Below, in pieces: positions 16,021-53,751 of a DNA stretch of 64,000 nt; position 1 is the first letter of the stretch; each line of letters begins with the position of its first letter. This DNA is from Candidatus Kerfeldbacteria bacterium. GTDB taxonomy: Bacteria; Patescibacteriota; Patescibacteriia; UBA9570; XYC2-FULL-38-9. The stretch lies in assembly GCA_043813585.1 (NCBI GenBank), contig JBDRKW010000002.1, forward strand, positions 19,182 to 83,181. Direction: 5' to 3'. The position numbers and the translations under genes are program-made. The notes below the pieces were generated by a model. The model did no database searches. It worked only from the letters and a program-made list of their open reading frames with translations, and was not told the DNA's origin.

Positions 16021-16045
16021 GCCCACCTCGATGGGGGGGGTTGGT

Positions 16046-27331: not shown

Positions 27332-27340
27332 AGAAATATG

Positions 27341-27790: not shown

Positions 27791-27802
27791 AACTCAAGTA
27801 TA

Positions 27803-33246: not shown

Positions 33247-33543
33247 ATGTCATTCGCAAAAAATACACCCGTACAATATCTGCCAGGTGTTGGTTGGAGG
33301 ACCGCACAAGTCATGCACGACCTGGGCGTTCACACGGCCGGCCAGCTCAACTCCATGCCTGAACGCGTTCTGATCGAACTCTTCGGCCCCAGTATCCGCT
33401 CTGTTATCAGCAGCCTGCATCTCTCATCACCCCGAAAGAATAAACAATCCGTCACGCGCGCATCATCCATCAACGCCGGTTCAAAGAAAAAGAACCTCGC
33501 GTCGAGGCTCCGCATGGCAGCAACACTCATGACGCTTCTCTAA
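33247..33543 (+). pseudogene. 98-aa ORF equal to only the thumb/HhH segment of a Y-family DNA polymerase (DinB-like); likely a truncated remnant of an SOS polymerase gene
   Basis: YLPGVGWRTAQVMHDLGVHTAGQLNSMPERVLIELFGP aligns to the DinB block IPGVGKVSAAKLEAMGLRTCGDV...LLKRFG. No palm/fingers catalytic domain is encoded upstream. Confidence 0.4.
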
Positions 33544-34340
33544 AACATGCTGCTTTGATGGGCAAACGTCTGTCCCGTTTCCGCAATATCCCAGACATTG
33601 GCAACAGTGAACTGGGATTTTTGATTATCCGCATGGCAAAACGCCTCGAATCGGTCACCGTCAAACGATAAGATTTCTATCGTATGCTTCTTCACCTCTT
33701 TGGCATTATTATCATCAACTTCAAAATAATCGATCTCCAGCTGTTCATGCCGCTTAAACGCTTCCATCAACTTATCGATGATTAACGGCGCCTGCCCCCA
33801 CTTAATTGGTATGGGGATCTGCTGACCTCCGGACGGATAGAAAATCCTTCCGTGGCGCAATCCATATTCATACACATCACGCGTCACTTTCACATCATCC
33901 AGGCAGTACTTCGAAAGGGAATCCAGGTCGCCCTCGCGATACCAGCGAATAGCATCAAGACCGCTGCCGCTCTTTCCTTCATGCAACGTCGCCTGGGCTA
34001 CATTATCAAGCTTTACCCGGTGGCCAAGCGCCTTGGTGATCTCTTCCAGAATATCCAAATGCGGCAACGTGGATAGGTCAAGCTCCTTAAAATACGGTTG
34101 CAACACAGGATTATCGAAGTGCTTCGAATTAAAACCAATCAGCATCGGCTTTTCAGTTATCATTATTTTTTCCAGCTTCGGCAAATCCTTCTCAAAAAAA
34201 CCAAACGATTTTTTCTGCGAATACGAATACACCCCGCAAAACGAGACACCAAGATCCTTCTGGCCGTTTTCTCCAACCTCGTCAAAGGTCTTCTGCGTTT
34301 CTATATCGAATACCATTCGTTGTGGTGATGTATGATCCAT
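33540..34340 (-). CDS. RNase H-like 3'-5' exonuclease (DEDD, PolB-exo/YprB-like)
   Basis: The track ORF starts at GTG 34346; ATG at 34340. Exo I motif MVFDIETQ and a downstream acidic motif (FNSKHFDNPVLQPYF). Confidence 0.6.
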   Translation of the reverse strand: MDHTSPQRMVFDIETQKTFDEVGENGQKDLGVSFCGVYSYSQKKSFGFFEKDLPKLEKIMITEKPMLIGFNSKHFDNPVLQPYFKELDLSTLPHLDILEEITKALGHRVKLDNVAQATLHEGKSGSGLDAIRWYREGDLDSLSKYCLDDVKVTRDVYEYGLRHGRIFYPSGGQQIPIPIKWGQAPLIIDKLMEAFKRHEQLEIDYFEVDDNNAKEVKKHTIEILSFDGDRFEAFCHADNQKSQFTVANVWDIAETGQTFAHQSSMF

Positions 34341-34362
34341 ATCCACTCTATCTTACTGTTAT

Positions 34363-35163
34363 TTATTCATTGATCAAGTCTTCTTCATCCTTCTGATGCG
34401 CTGCAGCGGCTTCATTCTCTGAAATCATCACTTCAACCTGCTCTTTTGCAGGGCATATAGTAATAAAATCACAATTTCTGCAATATTGATTCAGCTTCGG
34501 TTCAAATTCCTTTTCGGCCTTGATTTTTTCTACCTGCTCTTTAACAAGTTGTACGGCCTCGTCTGCCTCTTCCTGCCCAACTTCGATTGTATGCCACTGC
34601 ATAGTCTGCAAATAGAGATAACTTGCCTTTGTCACCGGTTTTTTCTGGCCTGCAGAAACGATCAGGGCATACAGAATCAACTGCAAATCGCTGATGTCGT
34701 CCTCATTATACTTGCCGGTCTTGTAATCAATCACATGCAGCGTGCCGTCTTCGAGCTCGTCCGCGCGGTCAATCCGGCCGATAATCTTCAGCTGGTCATC
34801 GATGTCCGTATCATAGTAATCTTCAAGCATCACCGGTGTTTTCGTCACATCGGTCCGGTGCACATACAAACGCAGCGTATTCAATGCCTTCACGCCCCAC
34901 TTTGCCTCGTCCTCTTTTGACGCAAACCCTTCACGATTTTCACGCCACCGCCGCCGGAGGATCTTTTCCAGCTCATCATACGTTCGTTTGTTCGGTTCAA
35001 GCTGTTCGTAAAAATCCTTAAGCGCATTATGGACATGCGCACCCATCGTCAGGTACGGCTTTGGTTTCTTGTATTCCTTATCCAGGTGGTCAATGTAGCT
35101 GAACTTATACTGCCGCGGGCAGTTCTCAAACATTCGCAGCTTAAATGGTGACGCCCGGAACAT
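34363..35163 (-). CDS. PD-(D/E)XK nuclease with a Cas4/AddB-type Cys cluster (Cas4-like, no CRISPR context)
   Basis: N-terminal Cys (ENCPRQYKF) plus C-terminal CRNCDFITICP, the 4-Cys arrangement of Cas4/RecB-family nucleases. Central ...IGRIDRADELEDGTLHVIDYKTGK has the D...ExK nuclease motif. Confidence 0.6.
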   Translation of the reverse strand: MFRASPFKLRMFENCPRQYKFSYIDHLDKEYKKPKPYLTMGAHVHNALKDFYEQLEPNKRTYDELEKILRRRWRENREGFASKEDEAKWGVKALNTLRLYVHRTDVTKTPVMLEDYYDTDIDDQLKIIGRIDRADELEDGTLHVIDYKTGKYNEDDISDLQLILYALIVSAGQKKPVTKASYLYLQTMQWHTIEVGQEEADEAVQLVKEQVEKIKAEKEFEPKLNQYCRNCDFITICPAKEQVEVMISENEAAAAHQKDEEDLINE

Positions 35164-35168
35164 ATATC

Positions 35169-35996
35169 CTACTTGAAATGTTGCTGCATAATCTCCACAA
35201 TCGCTTCCTCGTCCGGAATCCAGTAATAGAGCTCCTTGCCAAAGTCAGGGGTGTAGATACGGTCGCCGTAGCCGGGCAGCGCTTCCTCTTCCATCTCTCC
35301 GATTGAAACCTGGCCTTTGCGGCTGATGCCTGCTCCCACAAGAAAATAGATAAGTTTCGTTTTGCCGTAATCCAGCCGTGCCTGCTCTGCATCATTGAAA
35401 TAAGCGAGCAGCGATTTCACCGTGGAAGGTTTCTTGATTTTTGTCACAAGGGAACGAAGAATCTCGCGCGCGTCCGCCTGCCGGTCAAAGTCAGAGCGAT
35501 CGCCGGTAAACCGGTCGCGCACCACAGCCAACGCTGCAGGGCCGTCCACGACCTGGCCTTCCAGCACAGCGCCTCCAAGCGTATTGATAATCTCCTCAAA
35601 ACTCTGAAAGGTCACTTCAACCGTTGCGTCCACTTTTATATCCAGCAATTCTTCAATAACACTACGTGTCAATTCAATATTGCCCAGCGCCTTCTCGTCA
35701 TCCGGCCGTTCGCCCAACGCATAAAAATGCGTCATCTTCTGCATGCCCCATTCTTCGTGCTCAATATAAGTATCCCGCGGAATAGTCAAAAAATACGGTT
35801 GTTTGTTGCTGCTCTTCGGAACCGAAACGACAAACAGCACGTCAGAACGCGCCCGCTCAGTGCCGCGCTGATCCGATCCAACGAATAAAACATTGTAATG
35901 ATCCGGCGCCGTAACCACAATAAATCCCAAAACCACCACGATCAAGACAGCGCTTGTTATGATGAATCCTAAGATGAAAGGCAATATTCGTCTCAT
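35169..35996 (-). CDS. LytR-CpsA-Psr (LCP) family protein
   Basis: N-terminal TM, then NVLFVGSDQRG...RSDVLFVVSV...TIPRDTYIE, the LCP core. Confidence 0.75.
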   Translation of the reverse strand: MRRILPFILGFIITSAVLIVVVLGFIVVTAPDHYNVLFVGSDQRGTERARSDVLFVVSVPKSSNKQPYFLTIPRDTYIEHEEWGMQKMTHFYALGERPDDEKALGNIELTRSVIEELLDIKVDATVEVTFQSFEEIINTLGGAVLEGQVVDGPAALAVVRDRFTGDRSDFDRQADAREILRSLVTKIKKPSTVKSLLAYFNDAEQARLDYGKTKLIYFLVGAGISRKGQVSIGEMEEEALPGYGDRIYTPDFGKELYYWIPDEEAIVEIMQQHFK

Positions 35997-36943
35997 GAAT
36001 GCATGATTGAATGGACATAGGTCAGCACAACATCGTGCATTCTCTGCTCTTCTTTCAGGTTGTTGGTAAAATACACCATATTCGGTTTCGTATTCAACTC
36101 CACCATATACGGCTTGCCGTTCTGGAAAAAGAAATCCGCGCCATAAAACTTATACGGAAAAATCGCCAGCGCGTCAGAGACACGCTTTAACAACGGTTTC
36201 ACCGACTGAGGGATTTTAGATACAGGCAGGAAACAAATTCCACCACCCTGCGAGATATTACAGAGTTCCGTTCCAGGCGCAACAGTCCGAATATACGTCA
36301 TCACCGGCTTGTCGCCGGCAACATTGACGCGGAGGTCATGCGTGTCATTGAATAAACCAGGGATGCCGGCTGAGGTATCGATATGCGGCTGTAAAATACA
36401 CGGGGCGTTTGGCCGCCGATGTTTCATTTTCGCCTTGCTCTCTATAATGATTCCGGCGCCGCCATAACCCATGCGCGGTTTAAGCACTGCTTTTCGTGTC
36501 TTAATTTTTGCCAGTCCCTCAAGAAGTTCTGCCCGTGAACTGACCCGGTACGTATCCGGCATGATATCGTAAAACATCACGCTTGAGAGCAGTTTGTCTG
36601 AAGCCAGGAGGTCAAGCTCCATCGGATTAATCATCAAATTCTTTTTTTCAAACTCTTGCTTAAAACCAATACGATCATAGCGCATCGAAATCTTATCGTA
36701 GTACACGTCAGCCTTAATCCGCTTGCGGACTTTCACCCATTTAGAACCGTTCCAGGCCCACGCGCGGTCAAAATAACCATCCTTATACCAATGCATGCTC
36801 ATGCGGTAGGCCTCCATGCCATAATGGTCCGAAGCGCGCTGATACAATCGTTCATACGATTCGCGCATTTCGCGGTTCTCGAAGGGAACAGCCTTATGCC
36901 AGTCGGCATCTGAATACAGCATTCCGAAAATCTTTTTTCTCAT
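35993..36943 (-). CDS. ATP-grasp ligase, YheC/YheD-like
   Basis: VLKPRMGYGGAGIII (Gly-rich ATP loop) and C-terminal YMVELNTKPNM. 4-nt overlap with the LCP gene. Confidence 0.6.
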   Translation of the reverse strand: MRKKIFGMLYSDADWHKAVPFENREMRESYERLYQRASDHYGMEAYRMSMHWYKDGYFDRAWAWNGSKWVKVRKRIKADVYYDKISMRYDRIGFKQEFEKKNLMINPMELDLLASDKLLSSVMFYDIMPDTYRVSSRAELLEGLAKIKTRKAVLKPRMGYGGAGIIIESKAKMKHRRPNAPCILQPHIDTSAGIPGLFNDTHDLRVNVAGDKPVMTYIRTVAPGTELCNISQGGGICFLPVSKIPQSVKPLLKRVSDALAIFPYKFYGADFFFQNGKPYMVELNTKPNMVYFTNNLKEEQRMHDVVLTYVHSIMHS

Positions 36944-36961
36944 AACGATGGGTTAACTTTG

Positions 36962-37837
36962 TTATTTCTTGCGATACTGTTGCAGTGCATAATCAACCAC
37001 ATATTCCGCAACATCAACGCCAAGCGTCCCTTTCAAATTCTGCCATTGGGGATTTGCATTCGTTTCCAGAACAAGCCATTTGCCGTGATGCTTAATGAGA
37101 TCCACGCCGGCAATATCATACCCAAGCGACCGCGTGGCTTTCAGCGCCAATATGCGTACCTCCCGCGTCAGCGGCGCCTTGTCTGAATGCGCGCCAAGGG
37201 CATTCGTCCGGAATTCTCCTTTTGCGGCAAATCGTTCAAGCATCCCAATCACCTTGTTGCCGATCACAAGAACGCGATAATCGCTTTCAGCCGGAATATA
37301 TTCCTGAATGAAATATCCCGACCGGTTTTTGTTTAAGAATGCCAGCGCCTTTTTCTTTGAATCAAATTTCTCAATGCCACGACCCATCTGGCCGTACACC
37401 GGCTTTACGACAATGGGGAATGGCACCTGCCGCAACAACTCCTCATACGAACCCCCATCAGCAGCCTGAAAGGTGGCCGGGTGCGGAATGCCATTCTGGA
37501 CATAAATGCTTGCCTCATACACTTTGCTCGGCACGGTCCGCCGCGCCAAGGCCGAATCAATGACGATTTTGCCCTGCCGGACAAACAACCCCGCTAAAAT
37601 CTGCGCTATGACGTAGTTTCGGTTATACGCGCGGAACAGGTACACAGCACCGGTATCAATGCGGCGGCCCTTATATGTTGGCACTATCTTTCCATTCTTA
37701 TATGAAACCAAAACATCTTTCAGTTCGACAACGCGAACAGAATGGCCGCGGGCGCGTATTACTCGAACAAGATCCTGGTCGTTCTTGGATTTATGCCGGC
37801 CGATAATAATGAATTGTACCTTACGCGCCATCGGCAT
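36962..37837 (-). CDS. RimK-family alpha-L-glutamate ligase (ATP-grasp)
   Basis: The track ORF starts at TTG 37885. ATG at 37837 or 37831 (MPMARKVQFIIIG...). VVKPVYGQMGRGIEKF, EYIPAESDYRVLVIGNKVIG, LVLETNANP. The start overlaps the xseB 3' end. Confidence 0.75.
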   Translation of the reverse strand: MPMARKVQFIIIGRHKSKNDQDLVRVIRARGHSVRVVELKDVLVSYKNGKIVPTYKGRRIDTGAVYLFRAYNRNYVIAQILAGLFVRQGKIVIDSALARRTVPSKVYEASIYVQNGIPHPATFQAADGGSYEELLRQVPFPIVVKPVYGQMGRGIEKFDSKKKALAFLNKNRSGYFIQEYIPAESDYRVLVIGNKVIGMLERFAAKGEFRTNALGAHSDKAPLTREVRILALKATRSLGYDIAGVDLIKHHGKWLVLETNANPQWQNLKGTLGVDVAEYVVDYALQQYRKK

Positions 37838-38057
37838 CGTCCTCGACTTCGTATTGCTTCTTGAGCGTTTCGATGCTGTTTTCAACCGTCTTCAGCGTTG
37901 CCTTAAGGTCTTGTGCAATCTTCAGGCCTTTCTCAAACTGCTTCAGGCTGGCGTCCAGGTCAAGCTTTCCGTCTTCCAGCGAACCAACAATCGCCTCCAG
38001 CTCTTCAAACTGCTTTGCGAATGAGTCACTATTTTTGTTCTTGGTTGTTTTGGCCAT
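37821..38057 (-). CDS. xseB: exodeoxyribonuclease VII small subunit
   Basis: 78 aa. FEELEAIVGSLEDGKLDLDASLKQFEKGLKIAQ is the XseB signature. Confidence 0.85.
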   Translation of the reverse strand: MAKTTKNKNSDSFAKQFEELEAIVGSLEDGKLDLDASLKQFEKGLKIAQDLKATLKTVENSIETLKKQYEVEDDADGA

Positions 38058-38108
38058 ATCATAGTAAGACTATTAAGATTTACCCTCCCTGTCAAACCAC
38101 GCTTACTC

Positions 38109-39125
38109 TTATTTTTCAAGCAGCGCGCGCATTACTGTCCTGGCGATATTGCGCGGACGCCCTGCATGCGGAAAATGATGCATGCTCAGGCCCGGCTGAT
38201 GGTTCACCTCAACAACCACGCCGCGCGTTCGCTTCGCCGATTTGCTCACATCTTCACATAACAGATCAACACCCGCAAACCGGAGACCGAGCGCCTGTAC
38301 GGCATCTGTCGCTATGCGCTTATTCGCTTCGGAGATGTCATTGGTTGCATCTTCAACCGTACCGCCTGTCCCGATATTGCATACATTGCGCAAACGCACT
38401 TCACATCCGGATGCCGGTACGGACTGCAGCGTCATGCGCTGCTGCCGCAATAGGTACTTCATCTCCGCATCAATGCCGATCTTTTTGTACACGATGCCAG
38501 GGTGAACTTTGCGCATGCGCTCCCTCTCCGATATGAGTTGAAGTACCGACTGCCGGCCGTCCCCCACAACATACGCGGGCCGGCGCCACGTCACGCCAAG
38601 TACTTTTCCGTCAAACACCAAAATACGATAGTCATTCAAGCCCTTATGAAACTCCTCAATAAGAACGTACTCATATTTTTGCAATGCGGACTTCACCATC
38701 CGTTTCAGGGTTTTCTTATCGCGAATATCCGTCCGGATGCCCTCGCCGCCTGCTGTTCCTTTATTGGGCTTGATCACGAGCGGAAAGCGGAGACCTCGCA
38801 GATCCAGATCTCCGGAAGCCAGGTCTCGTTTGTGAACCCGAATGCTCTTTGAAACGGGCACGCCGGCGGCGGCCAGTTGCGTGTTAGTAATGAACTTGTT
38901 ATCCGCGGCAAAGGAACTTGAAAAAGTATTCAACGGCGTTGCCGCGCCAATGAAAAAGTACCGCCTCACCCCTTTTTCAATCAGGACATAATAGGGCTTA
39001 TGGAAAAAATGAACGGTCCATCCCATATCCAGCGCCACTTCTGCAAACAACGCAGCGTTAATCCAGCCGAGCTCAAACACCTCTTCATAAACATTTTTCT
39101 TTGTAATTCTGACCTTCTTAACCAT
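38109..39125 (-). CDS. ATP-grasp ligase resembling the N-terminal ATP-grasp domain of cyanophycin synthetase/RimK-like enzymes (stand-alone)
   Basis: PLVIKPNKGTAGGEGI, RRPAYVVGDGRQSVLQLI, CNIGTGGTVEDATNDI, VVVEVNHQPGLSMHHFP. Confidence 0.6.
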   Translation of the reverse strand: MVKKVRITKKNVYEEVFELGWINAALFAEVALDMGWTVHFFHKPYYVLIEKGVRRYFFIGAATPLNTFSSSFAADNKFITNTQLAAAGVPVSKSIRVHKRDLASGDLDLRGLRFPLVIKPNKGTAGGEGIRTDIRDKKTLKRMVKSALQKYEYVLIEEFHKGLNDYRILVFDGKVLGVTWRRPAYVVGDGRQSVLQLISERERMRKVHPGIVYKKIGIDAEMKYLLRQQRMTLQSVPASGCEVRLRNVCNIGTGGTVEDATNDISEANKRIATDAVQALGLRFAGVDLLCEDVSKSAKRTRGVVVEVNHQPGLSMHHFPHAGRPRNIARTVMRALLEK

Positions 39126-39137
39126 GCTTCGGCGTTA

Positions 39138-40301
39138 TTATTTTTTATCGGCAGTTGAGCGCACCTCGCCGTCAAAAAATCGCGTACGAAGCCGCTGGCC
39201 CGCGCGCACCCTCGCGGCACTGGTAAGCGCCCGGCCCATCTCATCCAGCGTCATGGTATATCCCCGCTGCAGTACGTTCATCGGATTAATTGATTTGAGC
39301 AGCTGCATCATCGATTGAACCTGCGACAATTTCATTTGAACATCATGAGACAGGCCAAGTAGGGTAATATTCAGCCGCTGCTGCAGCTCTTCAAACCGGC
39401 CGACCTGTTCGCGCGCGTTATGGTCAAGCAGCTGCACTGCGCTGTAAATGCGGTCGCGATACTGATCAAGCAAGCTATCCACGGAGCTCCCCATGCGTTC
39501 AGTCATATATTGTATCTCGGCAATCACGTCGCGCTTCTCCGGCACAACCAGCTCCGCTGCATTCGACGGGGTTGAAGCGCGCACGTCAGCCGCCATGTCC
39601 GAAAGCGTCACATCGCGTTCATGGCCGACCGCGCACACCACCGGAATATCGGATGCAAAGATCGCACGTACAACCTCTTCCGAATTAAACGCCTGCAAAT
39701 CTTCCAGCGATCCGCCTCCGCGCGTAAGAATAATGCAGTCCAAATCCTTCTGCGTTTCATTCATCTCATGCAGCGCGTCCACAATACTATCCACTGCGCT
39801 GACGCCCTGAACCTGTACATGCATATGCCGGATATCCAGCCCTGCCCAACGATTCTTTAAAATGCGAAGTACATCCGTATAGGCAGCCGCATCCTTACTG
39901 GTTACCAAACCGACCTTCTGCGGAAACCGAGGCAGCTGACGCTTGCGGGATTCGTCAAACAGCCCTTCTTTTTCTAGTTTCTTCTTTAACAACGCGAACG
40001 CCTTTTGCAGGCTGCCTTCGCCAACCAACTCGATCTGCCGGGGCTTGAACGCAAACTGCCCTTTCTTGAACAGCGTCGGCGTCCCGACCGCGCGGATCTC
40101 CATGCCGTCTTCGAGCTGCTGCCGCAGCTGGAACGTCATCATGAAACAGCTCACAGCCGAATCCTCATCAACCAATGAAAACCAGACAAACCGGTTCTGC
40201 GAAATATGGAAATCAGAAACTTCGCCCTGGACCATAACCGTAACCTGGCCGAGCAGTTCATTTATCTCTTCGCGAAATTCTGAAACCGAATAAACTTTCA
40301 T
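39138..40301 (-). CDS. xseA: exodeoxyribonuclease VII large subunit
   Basis: 387 aa. N-terminal OB fold (VSEFREEINELLGQ...VMVQGEVSDF) and a catalytic/coiled C-terminal region. Confidence 0.88.
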   Translation of the reverse strand: MKVYSVSEFREEINELLGQVTVMVQGEVSDFHISQNRFVWFSLVDEDSAVSCFMMTFQLRQQLEDGMEIRAVGTPTLFKKGQFAFKPRQIELVGEGSLQKAFALLKKKLEKEGLFDESRKRQLPRFPQKVGLVTSKDAAAYTDVLRILKNRWAGLDIRHMHVQVQGVSAVDSIVDALHEMNETQKDLDCIILTRGGGSLEDLQAFNSEEVVRAIFASDIPVVCAVGHERDVTLSDMAADVRASTPSNAAELVVPEKRDVIAEIQYMTERMGSSVDSLLDQYRDRIYSAVQLLDHNAREQVGRFEELQQRLNITLLGLSHDVQMKLSQVQSMMQLLKSINPMNVLQRGYTMTLDEMGRALTSAARVRAGQRLRTRFFDGEVRSTADKK

Positions 40302-40555
40302 TATTTGTATGGCTTCAGTTCAAACGCATGGTCACCAGTCCGAACAACCGAATAGTAATCACCGTCACCCAGCTTCACCATCGCAGAACCGCCGTGCCCT
40401 AACGCAAAAACACTATTATGTACTTTCCCTCCGGCATTGATTGCACGAATCAACCGATCAAGATGCAGGCCTTCTAAATCATTCGTATTGAAATAGTACG
40501 TATGTGGCTCCGACTCCTCGTCCCGACGCATATATTCTTTTCTTGATGCTGGCAT
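40301..40555 (-). CDS. hypothetical small protein (84 aa)
   Basis: ATG at 40555. The stop overlaps the xseA start. No recognisable family. Confidence 0.45.
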   Translation of the reverse strand: MPASRKEYMRRDEESEPHTYYFNTNDLEGLHLDRLIRAINAGGKVHNSVFALGHGGSAMVKLGDGDYYSVVRTGDHAFELKPYK

Positions 40556-40562
40556 AGTATTA

Positions 40563-41156
40563 CTATAGCGAATTTAGGTCGATGGATAAATTTGTTGCCT
40601 CAAGGCCGGAAGAAGCGCACGGTTCATCGCGATACGGCGCGCCATCACGCCTGAGCCAGACATATTTTGCATTCGGCAGTACTGCATGCATCGCATCAAT
40701 CTCGGAACCGCGGTCATTAATAAATACAACGTCCTCGCCTTCCCATTGTTTCACAATCTCTTCCTTTGACTGTTCTGTTGCAACCACTTCGTCTACTAGC
40801 TCATCAATACCTGCGCCGGCAATCTTTCGCTCCTGCCATTCCGGCAATCCAAACGACAATACCGTAACGTCATGCTCGCTGTGATCCTTTAAAAACGGCA
40901 GTGCGTCCGGATATAAAAACTCTCCGGCATTATCAACAACCGCTTTCATCTTTTCCAGCGCTTCGCCCTGCTTATCGCCGCCGACCAGCAGCCGGACATG
41001 CTCGGTCAGGTGATACACGCCGTCGAGCTTCGCTTCCTGTTCTGTTGAACGATAGGTATTTTCGTCCACGCCAAACGGCTCCAGCACAGCGATTAATGCG
41101 CGCCGCATCGCTTCCGTGTTAAACAGCGTATAGTCAAAATCTACAAGGATTCGCAT
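40563..41156 (-). CDS. HAD-superfamily hydrolase
   Basis: Motif I ILVDFDYTLF with the DxD nucleophile pair. Later conserved Ser/Thr, Lys and Asp residues. Confidence 0.7.
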   Translation of the reverse strand: MRILVDFDYTLFNTEAMRRALIAVLEPFGVDENTYRSTEQEAKLDGVYHLTEHVRLLVGGDKQGEALEKMKAVVDNAGEFLYPDALPFLKDHSEHDVTVLSFGLPEWQERKIAGAGIDELVDEVVATEQSKEEIVKQWEGEDVVFINDRGSEIDAMHAVLPNAKYVWLRRDGAPYRDEPCASSGLEATNLSIDLNSL

Positions 41157-42049
41157 AGGTCATAAATTGCTTGCGCGGCCTTTTTGCCCGAAACACAGAC
41201 AGGATTCTCTTCATCTGCCAGGTCAACAGTAATTATTTGAACCGCTTCATTAGATACTTCGGTAGGTATGCCCTGGACATCATCCGGCAGCGCAACGGTT
41301 CCGTCATCAACAATCGCCACAGACAGCCGCGCCGGTTCCAGGTACCGGTTTAACTCGGAGATAAAATCACTGGTCGTAAAATCATGCGTCTCGCCCCGCT
41401 TTGTTGAACGGTTGCATACGTACACGACAGGCGCGTCGCTCTCTGCGATCGCATCAACAACGCCTTCCACCAGCAAATTAGGAATAATGCTCGTATACAA
41501 ATCGCCCATGGAAATGACGATGCAGTCTGCAGCTGCAAACGCCTGCTTAACCTGATCGGTGGTCTGCACAGCCGGATCAAGCCGCAACTTATCTATGTGC
41601 AGCGAACTGTCATGCTTTGGCACATCTATATTCTCTTCTTCCCGGACAACGGTCTTTCCATCATCATACTCAGCTACCAGATGCGTAAGCTGTTCCGTTA
41701 CCGGCAGTACGGTTCCTTTCACTCCGCACCGGTCAGACAGGGCGCGCACTGCCGACGTGACAGCGCCAACTTTCTCAAACTCGCTGACAATCTCCAAATT
41801 GCCTTTCGCATGCCCCTCCCGGTCGCGCTCATTCCATTCGCATACCGCTCCAGTATTCTCTGCCAACGCGGCAATGCACCGGCGCAGGTCCCCGGGCGGC
41901 AGCACGCCGTTCATCTCCCGCAGCTTGCCGCTGGATCCGCCGCTGTCCATCATCGTCACCACTGCCGTTATTTCAACATCGTGCTCCTTTAAATACGTCA
42001 GCAGCTCTGACTGGCCGTTCCCGCCGCCGATGGTGACAATCCGCTTCAT
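41141..42049 (-). CDS. YvcK/UPF0052 (CofD-like) family protein
   Basis: IVTIGGGNGQSELL, MMDSGGSSGKLR, LPPGDLRRC, the YvcK hallmarks. Confidence 0.8.
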   Translation of the reverse strand: MKRIVTIGGGNGQSELLTYLKEHDVEITAVVTMMDSGGSSGKLREMNGVLPPGDLRRCIAALAENTGAVCEWNERDREGHAKGNLEIVSEFEKVGAVTSAVRALSDRCGVKGTVLPVTEQLTHLVAEYDDGKTVVREEENIDVPKHDSSLHIDKLRLDPAVQTTDQVKQAFAAADCIVISMGDLYTSIIPNLLVEGVVDAIAESDAPVVYVCNRSTKRGETHDFTTSDFISELNRYLEPARLSVAIVDDGTVALPDDVQGIPTEVSNEAVQIITVDLADEENPVCVSGKKAAQAIYDLCESL

Positions 42050-42052
42050 ACG

Positions 42053-42772
42053 CTAAACGAGCTTATTGTTAATAAGAAACCGCTCAACCTCTGGGATGTC
42101 TTCCGGCTTGCCAAAATCAACCCATTCACCGGCCATCCGCTGCACTTTAATCTTTCCGTCCGCTGCCATCATATTAACCGCGTCAACGATTTCATATTCC
42201 CCGCGCGGCGACTCATGCACATTGCGGACCACATCAAATACTTCAGGCTGAAACACATACACGCCAAGGTTGATCAGGTTCGAAACCGGTTCACGCGGCT
42301 TCTCAATAATACCTTTCAAGAAAGCATCCTTGCCCATATCAAGAACGCCATAATGGGTCGGATCTTCATGATACGTCCCGACAATATGCGAAAACCCGTC
42401 GTCTTCCCGGATCGAACGCAGCACTTCCGGCGTATACAGCGAATCACCGTTAATGAGGACAAACGGCCTGCCTTTGAGCTCAGGTTCCACGGCTTTCACC
42501 ACCATTGCCGTACCGTAATGGTTCGGCTCGCGCTCCGACTGATTCACCATCGTAATATCATAGGGCTCTGAATCCAGGAATTTCTTCATGATGTCGGCGT
42601 AATAGCCGGCAACCACGATTATGTGCCTGAACCCGACCTGGTCGACAAGCTTCAATAAAAAATGCAAAAACGGCTTGCCCGCCACATGGATAAGATGCTT
42701 CGGCTGCTCATCGGACAAGTGCTTCATGCGTACGCCCCTGCCTGCTGCCGCGATAACAATCGTGTCTATCAT
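42053..42772 (-). CDS. sugar-phosphate nucleotidyltransferase
   Basis: IVIAAAGRGVRMKHLSDEQPKHLIHVAGKPFL (G-x-G-x-R-x nucleotide loop). Confidence 0.7.
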   Translation of the reverse strand: MIDTIVIAAAGRGVRMKHLSDEQPKHLIHVAGKPFLHFLLKLVDQVGFRHIIVVAGYYADIMKKFLDSEPYDITMVNQSEREPNHYGTAMVVKAVEPELKGRPFVLINGDSLYTPEVLRSIREDDGFSHIVGTYHEDPTHYGVLDMGKDAFLKGIIEKPREPVSNLINLGVYVFQPEVFDVVRNVHESPRGEYEIVDAVNMMAADGKIKVQRMAGEWVDFGKPEDIPEVERFLINNKLV

Positions 42773-43776
42773 AGGATTGATTTCAAGCGTTTTACTGTAC
42801 GATATATGGTATACCAGGTTTGCGAAAGAGGAAACTCTACCGTGCCCGGGTATATGGCGGTTTCCCCGCCAAATCCGGTCTTGAACCGCGTTACGCCCGC
42901 TAACTTATGCTCTGGCTGGTCATCCGGACTGATCCCGTAAAAATCAAACCACGCAAAACCTGCCTCTTTTGCCCGGCGAATGGACTGCCACTGCAGCGCA
43001 TAGGGCGCCATCACGTTCTTCATTTCATCAGACGATGCGCCGTGCAGATAGGTCATGGTGTCGCCGAACCGAATAAGGATATTCACTCCGAGCAGCTTCC
43101 CTTTATATGTGGCGCGCGCCAGTTCAAGCTCGCCTTTCTCGCCCAATACTTCGATCATGTTAAGGTAATACCCTTTCGGATGCAGACGGATGCCGTGCCG
43201 CTGCGCTGTCGTGTCTGCCATGATGTAGAAATCCTCTGCCGGCCCGGCCCAGCCCGCGCCGCTGTTCGATTGCGTCAGGAAATCAACCTCTACGCCTTTC
43301 TTCTCCGCAAGACGGATATTATACCGGGTTTTCTGCTTCATGCCGGCAAGAAGCTCTTCTTCCGACTTACTCAGGTTCAGGATGGATGTAACCGCTGGTT
43401 CAACATCCGGCACCACGCGGCTTTGCGGCATAAGATCGCCGGTCAATGGTTCAAGCCGCCAAAAAACATAATCATACTCTTTCTTCAAAAATTGCTTCAT
43501 CGCTCCAATAACGCCGGCCGTATCAACACCAGCCAACACCACCGGGCCGCGCGGAGAAAACGCAAACGTCTTTCTCATCGGGATATCAAACTCCACAACC
43601 AGGCATGCCGCCACCGGCCTGCCATCCTGCCGAACAAAAAAACGGTGAACCCGCCGGCTGAATCCCGCCTGCACTTCACCCCAGTCCCAAGACTGTAAAA
43701 ACGAAGAATGTTCCGGCGCCTGCTCCGTTATAAACCTATCCCAAGCGCCTTGTTCATGTACCTCTGCAATATCCAT
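42769..43776 (-). CDS. FemAB-family peptidoglycan peptidyl/aminoacyl transferase
   Basis: KTRYNIRLAEKKGV, HGIRLHPKGYY, YLHGASSDEMKNVMAPYALQWQSIRRAKEAGFAWFDFYGI. Confidence 0.75.
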   Translation of the reverse strand: MDIAEVHEQGAWDRFITEQAPEHSSFLQSWDWGEVQAGFSRRVHRFFVRQDGRPVAACLVVEFDIPMRKTFAFSPRGPVVLAGVDTAGVIGAMKQFLKKEYDYVFWRLEPLTGDLMPQSRVVPDVEPAVTSILNLSKSEEELLAGMKQKTRYNIRLAEKKGVEVDFLTQSNSGAGWAGPAEDFYIMADTTAQRHGIRLHPKGYYLNMIEVLGEKGELELARATYKGKLLGVNILIRFGDTMTYLHGASSDEMKNVMAPYALQWQSIRRAKEAGFAWFDFYGISPDDQPEHKLAGVTRFKTGFGGETAIYPGTVEFPLSQTWYTIYRTVKRLKSIL

Positions 43777-43780
43777 CCTT

Positions 43781-44359
43781 CTATGTTATTGATAGCTTCT
43801 TTAGCGCGTCCTTCACCTGCTCTTCAACCGGAGCGTCCGAATCAATGCCATGCAGTACGTCTATAGCTTCTGACTGCGAGTACCCAAGGCCGAGCAGTAT
43901 GTCAATCGCGCCAATCTCTTTTGGAGGGCCGCCCGCAGACGATGACTTTGAATCAGACAACACGGCAATCGAATCCTTCAAGTCAAGCACAATGCGTTCT
44001 GCTGTTTTTTTACCGACACCGGAGACGCTGGATAACAACGCGACATCACCATGGATAATTGCTTTTTTCAAATCCTGCGATGCAAACTCTGATAAAAGAG
44101 CCAGGCCAAGCCGCGCACCGACGCCCGAAACCTGGATCAGCTGTTTGAAAAAAACCAGGTCATCGTATTCCGGAAAACCATAGAGATCCAATGTCGCTTC
44201 ACGGACATACTGATGCGTATACAACTCAATATCCTGGCCGGTGCGAATCTTTTCACGCACGCGATCAGGCACAAAAACCGAATACCCGATTCCCTTAACA
44301 ATAATAATAAGCCCATCCTCCTCGACGCGCTTGACTGTACCGTTTATGTAGCTAATCAT
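43781..44359 (-). CDS. ruvA: Holliday junction helicase subunit RuvA
   Basis: 192 aa. ISYINGTV...GIGYSVFVP OB domain and two HhH motifs (VSGVGARLGLALLS). Confidence 0.92.
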   Translation of the reverse strand: MISYINGTVKRVEEDGLIIIVKGIGYSVFVPDRVREKIRTGQDIELYTHQYVREATLDLYGFPEYDDLVFFKQLIQVSGVGARLGLALLSEFASQDLKKAIIHGDVALLSSVSGVGKKTAERIVLDLKDSIAVLSDSKSSSAGGPPKEIGAIDILLGLGYSQSEAIDVLHGIDSDAPVEEQVKDALKKLSIT

Positions 44360-44406
44360 AGTGAAGTTCTACCGCTATTGTACCATGCGGTCAATTGTTG
44401 AAACAA

Positions 44407-45894
44407 TTACTCTTCATTCTGCGCCGTCGTGTCCCCGGCAGGCAGCGCGGGCGTCTTCGCTGCTTTTACCGCCTTCTTGACTACTCGTTTCTTGATAACC
44501 TTTGTCGAATCAATGAGGAAATGCGATAAATTCCGCTTGCCGATAATCATAGGATACTTAAGGCTGGAGCGGTCGTATACATTCGGCTCGATCGTCATTT
44601 TTAACCCCCCTAATACCATGGCGAGCTTGATATGCATTCGGATAGAAACGCCATGCGAAGACTTCACCACCGACAACCGCGCAATATCCTTGTTCAGTCC
44701 GACCAGATCTTTTTTTACCGTTTCAATCGCCGCATTGGCCTCTTCCTCTGTTTCATATTCGGCAAAATGCTGCGCATCAAACGCGGCAATGGCTTTCCCA
44801 TACCCCAGCTCGCGCGCAAGCGCAATGTCCATCGAACTGTCATCAGCGCCCGTATCGATTTTTGCGCGGATATTTTTCCGGAATTGTTCTTTTCCGATCA
44901 GCGTTACCGGCTCAATGAGCCCGATCACGTGCCGGCCGGTAATGTTAGAAACCTCCTCTGCCAGGTATCCGCCGAACAGGTCTTTTGCAATTGCGATGCC
45001 GCGCTCCGGCGTTTCAACCGTTAATCCGCGAATGCGCTGCAGCCGGTCGCGCAGCGGAATCATATTCGCCACCTGGATTCCCAGGCCCGGCCGCGCGTTC
45101 AACTCCATAACCACCGGACCGCGCTTCTTGTCGACGGAAATATCCACGCCGGCAAACCGCAGCCCGATCACGCGCGCTGCAATAATGGCTGTCTTCAGTA
45201 CCTCGTCCCAGTACGGAACTCGTATTCCGCGCAGGCTCGCGCCGTTGTCCGGATGCTTTTCGATCTCTTTCTCTCCCAGGTAGGACTTCACAACAGCATG
45301 CGTGGTTATCCCGCTCGGTACGTCAACGCCAATGCCGATGCCGCCCTGCGCCAGGTTCGCCCGTCCGCCGGATTTTTTCGTCGGCACGCGCATCATCGCA
45401 AGCACCGGAACGTTGTTGTAAACAATCACGCGAATATCCGGTATGCCGTCTGCTGAAAAACGCTTATACAGCGGATCGCCCGCCAGCCGCGCTTCAAAAA
45501 ACGCGGCGTCCGGCGTATGCAGCAGGGAAAAATTCCCGTCCAGGATATTCATGACATGCGCCGCCAGATCTTCATTGGTAAGCTGCCGACCGCGTGTGGT
45601 CAGCCAGTTTCCGTTTTTCATTTTGTTGTACACGACAATAATTCCCTCGCCGCCCAGGCCGCGCGACGGTTTGATCACAAAACTATTCGGCAAAGAGTCC
45701 CAGTCAAAATCCATGATCTCGGTAGCATGCTTAATCACCGCAATGAGATCAGCGCTCGTGATCCCGTGTTTCATTAAAACGCGCTTCGTCCGAAGCTTAT
45801 CATCTGCAATTTTTCGCGCTCTCTTCTTGTTCTCCCGCAGGTAGATGCTGCTGCGGGCATTCATTCCGAGAACTTTACTTCTTGCTTCCAGCAT
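44407..45894 (-). CDS. fusion protein: RimK-related alpha-L-glutamate-ligase-like ATP-grasp domain plus C-terminal retropepsin-like (clan AA, DTGA) aspartic protease domain
   Basis: N-terminal IKPSRGLGGEGIIVV...VMELNARPGLGI (ATP-grasp). C-terminal GLIEPVTLIGKEQF...AKIDTGADDSSMD...PMIIGKRNLSHFLID with the D-T-G-A catalytic motif. Confidence 0.75.
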   Translation of the reverse strand: MLEARSKVLGMNARSSIYLRENKKRARKIADDKLRTKRVLMKHGITSADLIAVIKHATEIMDFDWDSLPNSFVIKPSRGLGGEGIIVVYNKMKNGNWLTTRGRQLTNEDLAAHVMNILDGNFSLLHTPDAAFFEARLAGDPLYKRFSADGIPDIRVIVYNNVPVLAMMRVPTKKSGGRANLAQGGIGIGVDVPSGITTHAVVKSYLGEKEIEKHPDNGASLRGIRVPYWDEVLKTAIIAARVIGLRFAGVDISVDKKRGPVVMELNARPGLGIQVANMIPLRDRLQRIRGLTVETPERGIAIAKDLFGGYLAEEVSNITGRHVIGLIEPVTLIGKEQFRKNIRAKIDTGADDSSMDIALARELGYGKAIAAFDAQHFAEYETEEEANAAIETVKKDLVGLNKDIARLSVVKSSHGVSIRMHIKLAMVLGGLKMTIEPNVYDRSSLKYPMIIGKRNLSHFLIDSTKVIKKRVVKKAVKAAKTPALPAGDTTAQNEE

Positions 45895-47524
45895 GTTTGA
45901 ACACTTTACGGAACCGGATAAACTCCATAAGCCGCAGGCCGGAGAATTTTCCGACCAAGTAATTAATCACGAGGGTAAGCAGAATCAATTCCGGGTATGC
46001 CAGCATGGTTGTCTTGAACAGCGTCCAGTCGGCAATGAGGAAACCGACAATGGAGAGGATCAGCGTTTCTGCCGTCAGCTTCACCGCCGTCTTGTACCCC
46101 TGTTCAATCTGAACGGAAACGAAGTGCTCGGTGATGACTGTCATGATCAGGATCGGAAAGACGGAAATATTGATCAGCCCAGGCAGGTCAAAGTATGCGC
46201 CAATAAAGAACAGCACCAAAATCGACAGTGCCAAAACGGACAAAACTATCGCCATCCGCGGCAGGTACAGAATTCGCAGCTTGCGGGCGAGGATGCGCGC
46301 AATCGCTCCCAGGATAATAATCGTTAAGAAGATAATCAGCCCGTATTGCAGCCCGGTTTCGAGGAACGCCAAAGCGATAACCGTTGGCGCGAAAATGCCA
46401 AATGCCTTAATCCCCACCAGCTGGCGGGCGGCGGCAATGACGGTTGCCATCACGGGCAGCATGAGGATCAGATAAAGGGAATTCACCGGCACGCCCGTAT
46501 TAATCATATAATTCATCAGGTACGACATGAAATTCAGGGGGCTCAGCTTCTGCAGTCCGCGTTCGGTGTATTCAGTAATGATCTGGTAGGCAGCGCCTGC
46601 TGTTACAAGCGAATTCTGCAGCTCTTCGGGACTCTGCGCTCGTATCGCGTCATCCAGGATCTCCTCGTCTGCCACGACAATGTACTTCGGCTGCAAGCCC
46701 TGGTACGTGCTCTGTGCCGTGCGTGCGCTCGTTGTCAGAGACTGGCTGTTATTCACGGCAACGATTGCCTTGGAGCCAAACCCGAGCGGCTCGAGCGATT
46801 CAGCGTTCAGCGAAGAGATGCGCGACAGCTCGATTAACGAATTCAGGCCGACATTGCCCGCGGTCCAGGTAATAATAATATCGGAAGCAATAAGATCCTC
46901 CTTTGCCTTCGCAATTTTTTGCGCCAGCGTCTGCACAGTCAGGTATTCCTGGCTCACGCCGACTTCACGGATTGATACGACCAGCGCACCCTGCGTCAAG
47001 CCGTATGAGACGAGGCTGTCCACCTGTTCTTTCGTCACGCTGTCGTCAGTGACAAGCATCACCAGCCGGTCCTGCACCGAAACAATCACTTCAGCGCTGC
47101 TCATCCTGTAATTTTTCGACCCCTCCGTTCCGACAGACGTCATCAACGTCACGCGGTAGGTACCGCTTGTCTCATACACATGCGTCGCGTCAATGCCGGT
47201 GGCGTTGGTCCCGTCGCCAAAATCCCATTCAAATAAAATATGCTCGTCTTCCGGGCCGGTCGTGGCTGACGCGTCAAATAACACCGTGCGCCCAACAACC
47301 ACATTCCTGTCTTCGCCCGCGTTCGCCTTGAGCCGGACTTGGCTCTTTGTGGCATTCTCGTTCTGCTGGGCATTTTCAGCCGCCGAATCCGCCGCTGCAG
47401 CAGTATCTTCCGGAGTCTGCGCAACAGCCGCCGCGGGCAATACGGCCCATGACGCAACTGAAAACATCAGCGCGCACAGCGCTGTGACCGTCCATCGGGT
47501 GAAAATTCTGTTCATTCGTATCAT
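45875..47524 (-). CDS. secreted PKD-domain protein with a C-terminal 7-TM bundle (7TM partner of the ATP-grasp/retropepsin system)
   Basis: The track start is TTG 47536; ATG at 47524 or 47515 gives a signal peptide (MNRIFTRWTVTALCALMFSVASWAVLPAAAVA). PKD block VLFDASATTGPEDEHILFEWDFGDGTNATGIDATHVYETSGTYRVTL. About 7 hydrophobic helices in the last 230 aa. 20-nt overlap with the downstream gene. Confidence 0.7.
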   Translation of the reverse strand: MIRMNRIFTRWTVTALCALMFSVASWAVLPAAAVAQTPEDTAAAADSAAENAQQNENATKSQVRLKANAGEDRNVVVGRTVLFDASATTGPEDEHILFEWDFGDGTNATGIDATHVYETSGTYRVTLMTSVGTEGSKNYRMSSAEVIVSVQDRLVMLVTDDSVTKEQVDSLVSYGLTQGALVVSIREVGVSQEYLTVQTLAQKIAKAKEDLIASDIIITWTAGNVGLNSLIELSRISSLNAESLEPLGFGSKAIVAVNNSQSLTTSARTAQSTYQGLQPKYIVVADEEILDDAIRAQSPEELQNSLVTAGAAYQIITEYTERGLQKLSPLNFMSYLMNYMINTGVPVNSLYLILMLPVMATVIAAARQLVGIKAFGIFAPTVIALAFLETGLQYGLIIFLTIIILGAIARILARKLRILYLPRMAIVLSVLALSILVLFFIGAYFDLPGLINISVFPILIMTVITEHFVSVQIEQGYKTAVKLTAETLILSIVGFLIADWTLFKTTMLAYPELILLTLVINYLVGKFSGLRLMEFIRFRKVFKHAGSKK

Positions 47525-47536
47525 AGTACCATTCAA

Positions 47537-48028
47537 TTATGATTCTCGTTGTTGTTGGTTGTGGAGCGCCGCTCCGGCTATCGCAATCGCTACCGCATCT
47601 GCCGCATCATCCGGCTTTGGAACCTCATCCAGCTTAAACAGTATTTGCACAATGCGCTGCACGTCTTTCTTGTCTGCATTTCCTGCGCCGGTGACGATCG
47701 ATTTCACTTCCACCGGCTTTACATCCCGTATCGGGCAGCCCTGCCGCTCCAAAATGTACAGGACGACCCCGCGCGCCTGCCCCACGGCAAACGCCGTCGT
47801 CACGTTCTTTGCAAAAAAGAGCTCCTCCACGCTCGCCAGCGCAATTTCCGGGTACTGCTTCAGAAGCGCTTCCAAATCATTCGCCAATATGTTCAGCCGC
47901 TGAGGCAGCGTCGCTTCCTGCGGCGTACGTATGACCCCGCATTCAACCAGCTCCTGAGCAGGCCCGGTAATATTCACTATTGCAAAACCCGTAATCTCAA
48001 TGCCCGGATCGATTCCCAATACCTGCAT
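47537..48028 (-). CDS. ruvC: crossover junction endodeoxyribonuclease RuvC
   Basis: 163 aa. MQVLGIDPGIEITGFAIV, VEELFFAKNVTTAFAVGQARGV, and acidic catalytic residues. Confidence 0.92.
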   Translation of the reverse strand: MQVLGIDPGIEITGFAIVNITGPAQELVECGVIRTPQEATLPQRLNILANDLEALLKQYPEIALASVEELFFAKNVTTAFAVGQARGVVLYILERQGCPIRDVKPVEVKSIVTGAGNADKKDVQRIVQILFKLDEVPKPDDAADAVAIAIAGAALHNQQQRES

Positions 48029-48036
48029 ACTGCGTA

Positions 48037-53659: not shown

Positions 53660-53696
53660 TGCACCAGTATACCAAATTCAGCTGCAGCACAACAAA

Positions 53697-53725
53697 AGAA
53701 CCCGCAAGTGCGGGCTCTTTTTATA
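53697..53725. terminator. bidirectional terminator (CCCGC-aagt-GCGGG flanked by A and T tracts) after pilin-like gene 1
   Basis: aaagaaCCCGCaagtGCGGGctcttttta. A perfect 12-bp palindrome ACAGATATCTGT is adjacent at 53726-53737. Confidence 0.6.
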
Positions 53726-53751
53726 GACAGATATCTGTTTACAACAGATCG

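Follow-up and report, generated by a model that had tools for sequence, protein, structure and literature searches.

We analysed a stretch of 64,000 nucleotides from a Candidatus Kerfeldbacteria bacterium (contig JBDRKW010000002.1, positions 19,182 to 83,181), hereafter the window, in which the two subunit genes of exonuclease VII (ExoVII) are interleaved with genes for ATP-grasp ligases. Profile scans confirmed the gene order, coordinates and gene types given in a preliminary description of this DNA. On the minus strand, xseA (39138..40301) is followed by a stand-alone ATP-grasp of 338 aa resembling the G domain of CphA, here termed AG1 (38109..39125), the 237-bp xseB (37821..38057), a RimK-family ATP-grasp ligase (36962..37837), a divergent ATP-grasp termed AG3 (35993..36943), and a LytR-CpsA-Psr (LCP) glycopolymer-to-peptidoglycan transferase with an N-terminal membrane anchor (35169..35996). 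The start of the RimK-family gene was taken as the ATG at 37837, although a TTG further upstream at 37885 is also possible. The AG1 and AG3 proteins each have a counterpart of 100% identity at NCBI, in a metagenome-assembled genome assigned to Candidatus Kerfeldbacteria. The large subunit matches TIGR00237 with 374.6 bits against a cut-off of 180, together with PF02601 and an OB fold, and the small subunit matches TIGR01280 with 53.4 bits against a cut-off of 35, together with PF02609; both exceed their equivalog cut-offs and can thus be assigned to ExoVII by profile. The LCP gene scores 71.9 bits against PF03816 and 66.8 against TIGR00350 (cut-off 62.3).

These genes are part of a block of 18 co-directional genes spanning ~15 kb (33540..48762, minus strand), with gaps between genes of only -20 to +51 nt. 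The stop of xseB overlaps the ATG of the RimK-family gene by 17 nt, and AG3 overlaps the LCP gene by 4 nt. The block begins with yebC (48037-48762) and ruvC (47537-48028), followed by a gene for an RloB-like membrane protein (45875..47536), which overlaps by 20 nt a gene encoding an RloC-like ATP-grasp fused to a RimB/RloA-like retropepsin (44407..45894). Next come, in that order, ruvA, a FemX-like transferase, a sugar-1-phosphate nucleotidyltransferase, yvcK and a HAD hydrolase, and then hyp84 (40301-40555), an 84-aa open reading frame (ORF) without family matches that lies directly upstream of xseA. The last two genes encode a Cas4-like PD-(D/E)XK nuclease and an RNase-H-like exonuclease (33540-35163). 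Four of the genes in this operon are envelope-related, namely those for the FemX-like protein, the nucleotidyltransferase, YvcK and LCP. A promoter-like site precedes yebC, and a hairpin resembling a terminator is present at 33511-33491, though neither class of site is enriched over shuffled sequence, and matches to internal promoters or terminators within the 18-gene block were likewise no commoner than in shuffled sequence. The ligase genes resemble their neighbours in GC content, GC at third codon positions and codon usage, and this native composition gives no signal of recent horizontal transfer. We also considered an F420 pathway, in which a CofD protein would be joined by a CofF-like ligase. 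However, the CofD-fold gene is YvcK (TIGR01826, 213.8 bits versus a cut-off of 196; F420_cofD only 23.6), and the CofF score is 50.7 versus 300.

All three ligases beside xseB have intact catalytic motifs, as does the retropepsin upstream. AG1 scores 219.5 bits against the cyanophycin synthetase model TIGR02068 over model positions 208-471, with weaker matches to the C-terminal half of GshAB (169 bits) and to N-acetylglutaminylglutamine (NAGGN) synthetase (141 bits). The positions covered correspond to the G domain, so the earlier label 'CphA-N-like' needs to be corrected: the domain is G, the ATP-grasp domain, and not N. By sequence, its best solved structure is CphA1 (7lgn, 134 bits), and the D/E/N Mg-binding motif is conserved. 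AG1 is homologous to the G domain over its whole length, whereas CphA1 itself combines N, G and M domains; the 338-aa protein contains neither an N nor an M domain, and the cut-off for CphA1 membership is 850 bits. The window encodes a single Mur ligase, an ordinary MurE, which was rejected as a possible M partner, although one related locus, L066, does carry a separate M-domain-like Mur ligase. The nearest relatives of AG1 outside the Candidate Phyla Radiation (CPR), at 29-36% identity, are four paralogous stand-alone CphA-G-like ATP-grasps of Legionella fallonii (L001/L002, 4679-10198), which are located directly 3' of three type IV secretion-type genes (DotD, T4SS_TraI and T2SSE). On a Legionella-like contig (L003, 8001-10303), a CphA-G-like ATP-grasp is paired with a pyridoxal-dependent decarboxylase.

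The second ligase belongs to the RimK family, albeit barely, with 146 bits against a cut-off of 143.4 for TIGR00768. The RimK label is therefore sound at the level of the family and fails at the level of the S6 ligase proper, for which the equivalog NF007764 gives only 86.6 versus 331. Scores for LysX (118.4 versus 275.6) and MptN (115) are also below cut-off. Its best structural matches are the Pseudomonas and E. coli RimK proteins (7qyr and 4iwx, ~86 bits), with the catalytic D/E/N residues aligned, and its similarity to RimK does not exceed that to LysX or MptN. The S6 gene, rpsF, is not in the window. A housekeeping role of the D-Ala-D-Ala ligase (Ddl) type can be set aside for all three enzymes, in keeping with the preliminary description: the best score, that of AG1, was 41.6 versus a cut-off of 243, and the other two were weaker. 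Models of the GAK system likewise gave scores far below cut-off.

AG3 is a divergent ATP-grasp. Its Pfam and NCBIfam matches are all below threshold, including YheCD (PF14398, 22.2 versus 26.8), TTL (PF03133, 18.3 versus 20.1), ATPgrasp_ST and RimK. An AlphaFold model built with eight homologues (mean predicted local distance difference test score, pLDDT, 92.7) has a complete three-domain ATP-grasp fold, and the top Foldseek matches of this model are LysX/ArgX, GshB and RimK, each with a probability of 1.00, query-normalised TM-scores of 0.66-0.73 and ~15% identity. The model is about equidistant from all three, and the former 'YheCD-like' label was accordingly dropped. Invariant positions include the Gly-rich loop and catalytic Asp/Glu/Asn, the motifs being KPxxGxGGxGI, HDxR, NxxxGG and D...E.N and the residues K155, D203/R205, N229, D270, E282 and N284. 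A word-index search had initially suggested a tiny family of 8 clusters; this was overturned by an exhaustive profile search of 1.84 billion cluster representatives (clusters at 50% identity), which returned hundreds of clusters, 454 representatives being found at E<=1e-30, mostly of 300-330 aa and with a few tandem fusions. AG3 thus represents a sizeable uncharacterised ATP-grasp family without a Pfam or NCBIfam model. Two ATP-grasp domains of the AG3/d class are encoded in tandem by single ORFs in L073 (496-2424), P0198 and P0200 (640-648 aa), which suggests that paralogous ligases of this kind act as hetero-oligomers or in succession.

The two genes between ruvC and ruvA form what we refer to as the core module. 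The fusion protein scores 210.9 bits against PF14397 (ATPgrasp_ST) and 47 bits against the retropepsin family PF05618, with an intact DTG motif (within KIDTGAD), and 269.6 bits against TIGR02291, which is below the cut-off of 314.2. Its partner consists of a signal or anchor segment, a PKD domain (PF18911, 65.3 bits) and a C-terminal seven-transmembrane (7TM) region of the 7TM_transglut type (PF14402, 115.9 bits). This arrangement is reminiscent of the RloABC system of Pseudomonas aeruginosa, which comprises the retropepsin RloA, the 7TM inactive-transglutaminase protein RloB and the ATP-grasp RloC (PMC12239564). In both cases, a 7TM_transglut protein is encoded together with an ATP-grasp resembling ATPgrasp_ST/TIGR02291 and a retropepsin-like domain, and the envelope-related context seen here has a counterpart in the envelope-related phenotypes of P. 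aeruginosa (PMC12239564). However, there are several differences. The CPR retropepsin forms the C-terminal part of the ATP-grasp protein and, lacking a signal peptide, is cytoplasmic like RimB, whereas RloA is secreted and carries a signal peptide. The CPR membrane protein has a PKD domain where RloB has its periplasmic inactive transglutaminase domain, and its match to the RloB model NF052267 (81 versus a cut-off of 900) is confined to the 7TM part. The CPR system also comes with 1-5 extra ATP-grasps of three classes inside a ruv/xse operon. The core thus resembles both RloABC and RimK/RimB by sequence, yet it lacks the transglutaminase domain, has a fused rather than secreted retropepsin and scores below the Rlo and TIGR02291 cut-offs. 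Because 96% of the RloB sequence matches were reported from Proteobacteria (PMC12239564), the CPR version, in which PKD replaces the transglutaminase domain, constitutes a branch not recorded before. Homologous ATP-grasp-retropepsin fusions, at 45-77% identity, are found in many CPR lineages, and the insertion of the core module between ruvC and ruvA seen in the window recurs in L070, L074, L075, L076, L077 and L078.

We next compared the locus with its relatives by mapping the window proteins onto 61 xseA loci from species-representative genomes. Almost all of the recovered xseA loci with a detectable xseB have the two genes adjacent, which agrees with the original impression that the split is unusual. 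The nearest loci (L004, L005, L007, L011, L018 and, in part, L006) retain the backbone but include no ATP-grasp gene, their order being ruvA-femX-NTP transferase-yvcK-HAD-xseA-xseB-LCP-(nuclease)-exonuclease. Ligase-bearing relatives were found through homologues of AG3 (L065, L066 and L068/L069) or of the upstream fusion (L074 and L075). With AG denoting an ATP-grasp gene, L065 reads xseA-AG-xseB-AG-AG-AG-AG3-LCP, L066 reads xseA-AG-AG-xseB-AG-Mur ligase-AG-AG3-LCP, and L068/L069 reads xseA-AG-xseB-AG-AG3-LCP followed by a MATCAP-like peptidase. In L074, two Fem-like or unknown genes separate xseA from xseB, after which come an AG3-class gene, LCP and a MATCAP-like gene, while L075 has the order xseA-xseB-DUF3541-AG-AG3-class-LCP-AG. 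Together with the window, these constitute the Kerfeld-like loci. An AG3-type gene lies directly upstream of LytR/LCP in all six, and the 4-nt overlap between the two is present in four (the window, L065, L066/L067 and L074). Since the interleaving recurs in L065, L066 and L068/L069 and the AG3-LytR adjacency holds in six loci, the arrangement is more than chance. The ligases are not scattered in relatives either, as they are absent or at the same locus, which also agrees with the preliminary description. In an xseA tree, the ligase-bearing loci cluster along with the ligase-free L004, with support values that are unreliable after re-rooting.

The accessory ligases themselves vary considerably, with 1-5 ATP-grasps in total per Kerfeld-like locus; in some loci DUF3541, a MATCAP-like peptidase or a CphA-M-like Mur ligase is present as well. 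Among the Kerfeld-like genomes, the identity of backbone proteins is 55-76%, and the window xseA is 59-71% identical to those of L065, L066, L068, L074 and L075. AG3 is 35-71% identical across these loci, while members of the AG1 class from the window, L065 and L066 share only 34-38% identity, even at the same position; this deep divergence of AG1-class paralogues suggests that they may have different substrates. The RimK-class genes are 26% to 53% identical (the window gene is 53% identical to L065_c290 and 37% to L077_AG287 from Moranbacteria). Because divergence differs so sharply by gene class, the sequences point to a conserved AG3 core surrounded by quickly turning-over accessory ligases. 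In L066, the Mur ligase has its best match in the CphA M domain (143.5 bits versus 60.7 for MurE). The peptidases of L068/L069 and L074, located after LCP, are genuine MATCAP/DUF1704 proteins (PF08014, 77 and 50.6 bits), and as optional members of the arrays they occupy 11785-13101 in L068, 4351-5592 in L069 and 20456-21448 in L074. The DUF3541 proteins are similarly optional (L075, 16950-17921; L070, 8848-9774). The occurrence of bacterial MATCAP homologues beside faintly TTL-like ATP-grasps echoes the tubulin tyrosination cycle.

The same ligase classes were also found outside the Kerfeld-like genomes, as judged from a metagenome scan with the AG3 alignment and from context look-ups for the fusion homologues, and there they directly adjoin the core module. 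In Moranbacteria (L077), the order is yebC-ruvC-7TM-fusion, an AG3-class gene (31%), a RimK-class gene (37%, full-length alignment), a hypothetical gene, a class A penicillin-binding protein (PBP) and ruvA. In Falkowbacteria (L078), yebC-ruvC-PKD7TM-fusion is followed by a hypothetical gene, three CphA-G-class ligases and a class A PBP. In L070, yebC-ruvC-7TM-fusion precedes an AG3/d-class gene, a DUF3541-like gene and a PBP. The fusion is followed in L072 by two AG3/d-class genes, in L073 by two AG3/d-class domains in one 642-aa ORF, YdjC and a PBP, and in L079, where the 7TM gene precedes it, by an AG3-class gene. A class A PBP is thus encoded downstream of the array in all four of the checkable non-Kerfeld loci (L070, L073, L077 and L078), L079 excepted. 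As predicted, a genome with a ligase-free xse locus (L018) keeps an AG3-class gene beside its core module (L079). The core module at ruvC/ruvA and ligases around xseB and LCP are found together in the window, L065, L066/L076, L074 and L075. For L065, only the 3' end of the fusion is covered, and in L068, whose ligases are arranged in the same way, a homologue of the fusion (P0119) appears to lie on the same contig. Because every ligase class adjoins the core module in other CPR, we infer from these neighbourhoods that all four ATP-grasps of the window belong to one system. The earlier proposal that the four form one pathway is strengthened by this linkage, but its companion claim, that such a density of ATP-grasps is special to this organism, is not, as multi-ATP-grasp arrays beside the core module are widespread in CPR. 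In L078, a bAvd / 23S-rRNA-IVP-like gene (1415-1780) is located between yebC and ruvC; proteins of the bAvd type are accessory proteins of diversity-generating retroelements.

The position of the ligases between the ExoVII genes raised the question of whether ExoVII is itself involved. The cargo of the xseA|xseB junction consists of CphA-G-like ligases in the window, L065 and L066 and of a RimK-class ligase in L068, whereas in L074 it consists of the two Fem-like or unknown genes and in the Magasanikbacteria locus L023 (11224-13405) of a hypothetical gene and an Eco57I-like restriction-modification methylase. In L075, the entire ligase array follows an intact xseA-xseB pair. As this junction takes unrelated cargo elsewhere, ExoVII is best read as a bystander, and the interleaving as the probable outcome of insertions or rearrangements that recurred where the operon is permissive, around the small xseB. 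The opposite view, that the ligases modify ExoVII, for instance by lengthening an acidic C-terminal tail of XseB, would explain the interleaving, and XseB does end in acidic residues in the window, L065, L066 and L068 (…DDADGA, …VDEE, …VEEE and …KKYE). Moreover, Kerfeld-clade XseB tails extend just 0-9 residues beyond the conserved KKxY motif, while many other CPR have acidic tails of 10-20 residues. However, a comparison of 50+ XseB C-termini revealed no feature peculiar to ligase-bearing genomes: short tails occur in some ligase-free genomes too, and acidic or E-terminal tails are as common in ligase-free relatives. The XseB proteins of L074 and L075 end in …YRQN and …KYQ, the subunit genes are adjacent in L075, and other CPR keep the same ligase classes far from xse, beside the Rlo-like module. 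We consider modification of ExoVII to be highly improbable. Small, fast-evolving ORFs of 79-93 aa are located upstream of xseA in the window (40301-40555), L065 (4447-4695), L068 (6130-6670), L074 (15268-15549) and L075 (15312-15551). The stop of this ORF overlaps or abuts the xseA start in all loci but L066, which has no such ORF; identity is 41% between the window and L065, with no detectable similarity beyond.

Taking these results together, we favor, with moderate confidence, a reading in which the three ligases beside xseB are accessory to a CPR-wide, Rim/Rlo-related amidoligase system that makes an envelope-linked non-ribosomal peptide. Its core would consist of the 7TM membrane protein and the cytoplasmic ATP-grasp fused to the retropepsin. 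In most CPR lineages, the accessory ligase genes lie directly beside this core, while in the Kerfeldbacteria clade they would have shifted to positions 5-8 kb 3' of it in the same operon, at the xseA|xseB and xseB|LCP junctions. The closest characterised relatives, namely the CphA G domain, GshB, RimK and LysX, all add to carboxylates of peptides or proteins, either at the C-terminus or on side chains. Because of the homology to characterised ATP-grasps, each ligase would be expected to convert a carboxylate to an acyl-phosphate with ATP and then to add one amino acid or a short homopolymer. Jointly, the ligases may assemble a short non-ribosomal peptide or poly-amino-acid chain, which the fused retropepsin, and in some relatives a MATCAP-like carboxypeptidase, would trim; such stepwise building and trimming is suggested by the presence of several non-orthologous ligases, a retropepsin with an intact DTG motif and occasional MATCAP-like carboxypeptidases. 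The destination would most likely be the envelope, either as a peptidoglycan precursor or as a polymer linked to the wall, which the 7TM protein, class A PBP, FemX and LCP would handle. An envelope product is favored because of the 7TM/PKD partner, the class A PBP downstream, the AG3-LCP coupling, the FemX, YvcK and nucleotidyltransferase neighbors and the rlo phenotypes. In P. aeruginosa, the rlo operon is associated with hypo-osmotic sensitivity, cell shape and ampicillin sensitivity phenotypes, and loss of rloB or rloC suppresses the defects of rloA-protease mutants (PMC12239564). The tight operon packing and native composition of the ligase genes lend further support.

Other known systems resemble parts of this proposal. 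With RimK/RimB, the locus shares a gene that passes the RimK-family model with its catalytic residues aligned and a RimB-like retropepsin in the same operon, although that gene is one of several ligases. For the AG3 model, the best superpositions are with LysX/ArgX, GshB and RimK, and the same chemistry would be expected of it, but AG3, at ~15% identity, is a separate family. A LysX/ArgX-LysW system was rejected, as there is no LysW-like carrier in the locus and the LysX score of the RimK-family ligase is far below its cut-off; the small ORFs near xseA have no family matches and their ends are non-acidic. Cytoplasmic ATP-grasps that serve the cell wall are also known, including the D-aspartate ligase Aslfm, the pseudomurein ATP-grasp/pMur ligases and TupA of teichuronopeptide synthesis. 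Like these, the window genes are found in wall-related company, with FemX and LCP as neighbors and class A PBP in the arrays of relatives. However, matches to them are very weak (19.5-22.5 bits for pseudomurein Ddl and 18.9 bits for TupA), and for the window the wall target is inferred.

Several points weigh against the reading we favor. The peptide chemistry is drawn from homology. FemX, YvcK and LCP belong to the backbone that is kept even without ligases, CPR operons mix unrelated housekeeping genes, as ruv and xse are mixed here among cell-wall genes, and the proximity of envelope genes may be incidental. In L079, no PBP adjoins the array. The loci compared, about a dozen, were picked through homology searches rather than systematically. 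Finally, the cytoplasmic retropepsin, MATCAP-like peptidase and ligases fit protein or peptide tailing equally well.

Tailing of a protein C-terminus is the strongest of the alternatives, though we consider it rather unlikely. Here the ligases would extend the C-terminus of a protein and the retropepsin and MATCAP-like carboxypeptidase would remove the extension, yielding a reversible tuning tail. Known examples are RimK acting on ribosomal protein S6, TTL on tubulin and LysX on LysW. Poly-glutamate or poly-aspartate tails of this type, as raised in the preliminary description, are suggested by family resemblance. The RimK-family assignment of the second ligase, the fusion of the core ATP-grasp to a RimB-like retropepsin, the MATCAP-family peptidases after LCP in L068/L069 and L074, the faint TTL matches of the AG3 class, the likeness of the AG3 model to LysX/ArgX and RimK and the absence of signal peptides from all of the ligases and peptidases are consistent with this idea. 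On the other hand, the locus has no LysW-like carrier or acidic-tailed small protein, with hyp84 ending in …KPYK, the S6-ligase equivalog score is far below cut-off, and the 3-5 non-orthologous, fast-replaced ligases per locus are hard to fit with a single conserved target, while the partnership with the 7TM protein and PBP points outside the cytoplasm. The product might instead be soluble, a free small peptide or cyanophycin-like polymer serving as an osmolyte or as nitrogen or amino-acid storage. The best matches of AG1 are compatible with such a product, since they are to the CphA G domain, GshAB and N-acetylglutaminylglutamine synthetase (219, 169 and 141 bits), as are the additional CphA-M-like Mur ligase of L066 and the link of Pseudomonas Rlo to osmotic stress. 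Nevertheless, the window includes neither an M-like ligase nor a CphA N domain, its MurE being ordinary, no cyanophycinase was seen, and the low AG1-class identity, set against 64-71% for xseA, would not be expected if a storage or osmolyte pathway were conserved here; we therefore regard a soluble product as unlikely.

Two further explanations take the variability of the arrays as their starting point. The ATP-grasps could have no joint function, being independent insertions with unrelated roles in the permissive junctions of a housekeeping operon. This would account for the lineage-specific cargo between xseA and xseB, which includes ATP-grasps, Fem-like or unknown genes and the Eco57I-like methylase, and for close relatives being entirely without ligases. 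Yet the same three classes recur together beside the same core in Kerfeld-, Moran- and Falkowbacteria and other CPR, and the AG3-LCP adjacency is held in six loci at just 35-71% identity, so that unrelated roles appear quite improbable. The array could also be a variable cassette for an antagonistic or host-directed peptide, comparable to L-amino-acid-ligase antibiotics, or an anti-phage defence island, as conserved flanks combined with fast turnover of non-orthologous enzymes resemble conflict loci and the nearest non-CPR relatives of AG1 form multi-paralogue Legionella clusters. We consider this very unlikely: PADLOC models matched neither the core module (the fusion and the 7TM protein) nor the three ligases nor hyp84, the locus offers no gene for dedicated export or immunity apart from the 7TM protein, and the composition is native.

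A few additional features of the window were noted. The stand-alone Cas4-like nuclease scores 134.6 bits against PF12705 and ~57 bits against the PADLOC Cas4 models, and its partner is a 3'-5' exonuclease of the RNase-H-fold / PolB-exo-like kind. The pair (33540-35163) showed no CRISPR context, and it is kept 3' of LCP in all Kerfeld-like loci, where it is followed by LexA and a small IMS_HHH protein. The window MurE (26006-27331; 315 bits versus 257.3) aligns only from model position 68, so that it apparently has no N-terminal domain or uses an upstream start; its neighbours in this region (26006-30688, minus strand) are an MgtC-like protein and a subtilase of 961 aa that contains an fn3 domain. 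Positions 16001-18000 have a GC content of 0.65, compared with ~0.51 for the rest of the window, and the 438-aa ORF in this segment (16046-17362) has zero Pfam or NCBIfam matches. A strong positive AT skew of 0.20-0.27 was found at 4001-6000, 52001-54000 and 60001-62000, with values near zero elsewhere, and the ORF at 3704-5449 is without a Pfam match.

The xseA/xseB split is itself incidental, and the point of interest is the CPR-wide ligase system with its hypervariable membership. Literature searches combining MATCAP/DUF1704 or CPR with ATP-grasp, which did not cover the neighbourhood survey of Iyer et al. 2009, returned no account of CPR multi-ATP-grasp arrays or of xse interleaving. CPR (Patescibacteria) genomes are ~1 Mb in size and are without most biosynthetic pathways. 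This lineage nonetheless devotes five genes (four ATP-grasps and the 7TM gene) of a constitutive 18-gene operon to the system, and even more ligases are found in some relatives. The recurrence of related arrays in several CPR classes beside class A PBP suggests that a peptide-building activity, probably an important one, has gone unrecognised. Its most plausible place is envelope construction, which would be relevant because the cell surface mediates the episymbiotic lifestyle of these bacteria. More speculatively, CPR might possess a third route for adding amino acids to the wall, alongside the Mur ligases and tRNA-dependent Fem transferases, in which a fast-evolving set of AG3, CphA-G-like and RimK-like ATP-grasps together with the 7TM and ATP-grasp-retropepsin proteins would add a lineage-specific peptide to peptidoglycan, or to a wall polymer attached by LCP, and trim it. 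If so, ligase turnover would diversify the surface that an episymbiont shows to its hosts and phages. The findings also place the poorly understood Rlo/Rim-type systems in a second context, one that is distant in evolution and has additional parts, and these parts, including the AG3-class and CphA-G-like ligases, MATCAP-like peptidases and DUF3541, could help to reveal the products of Rlo/Rim systems.

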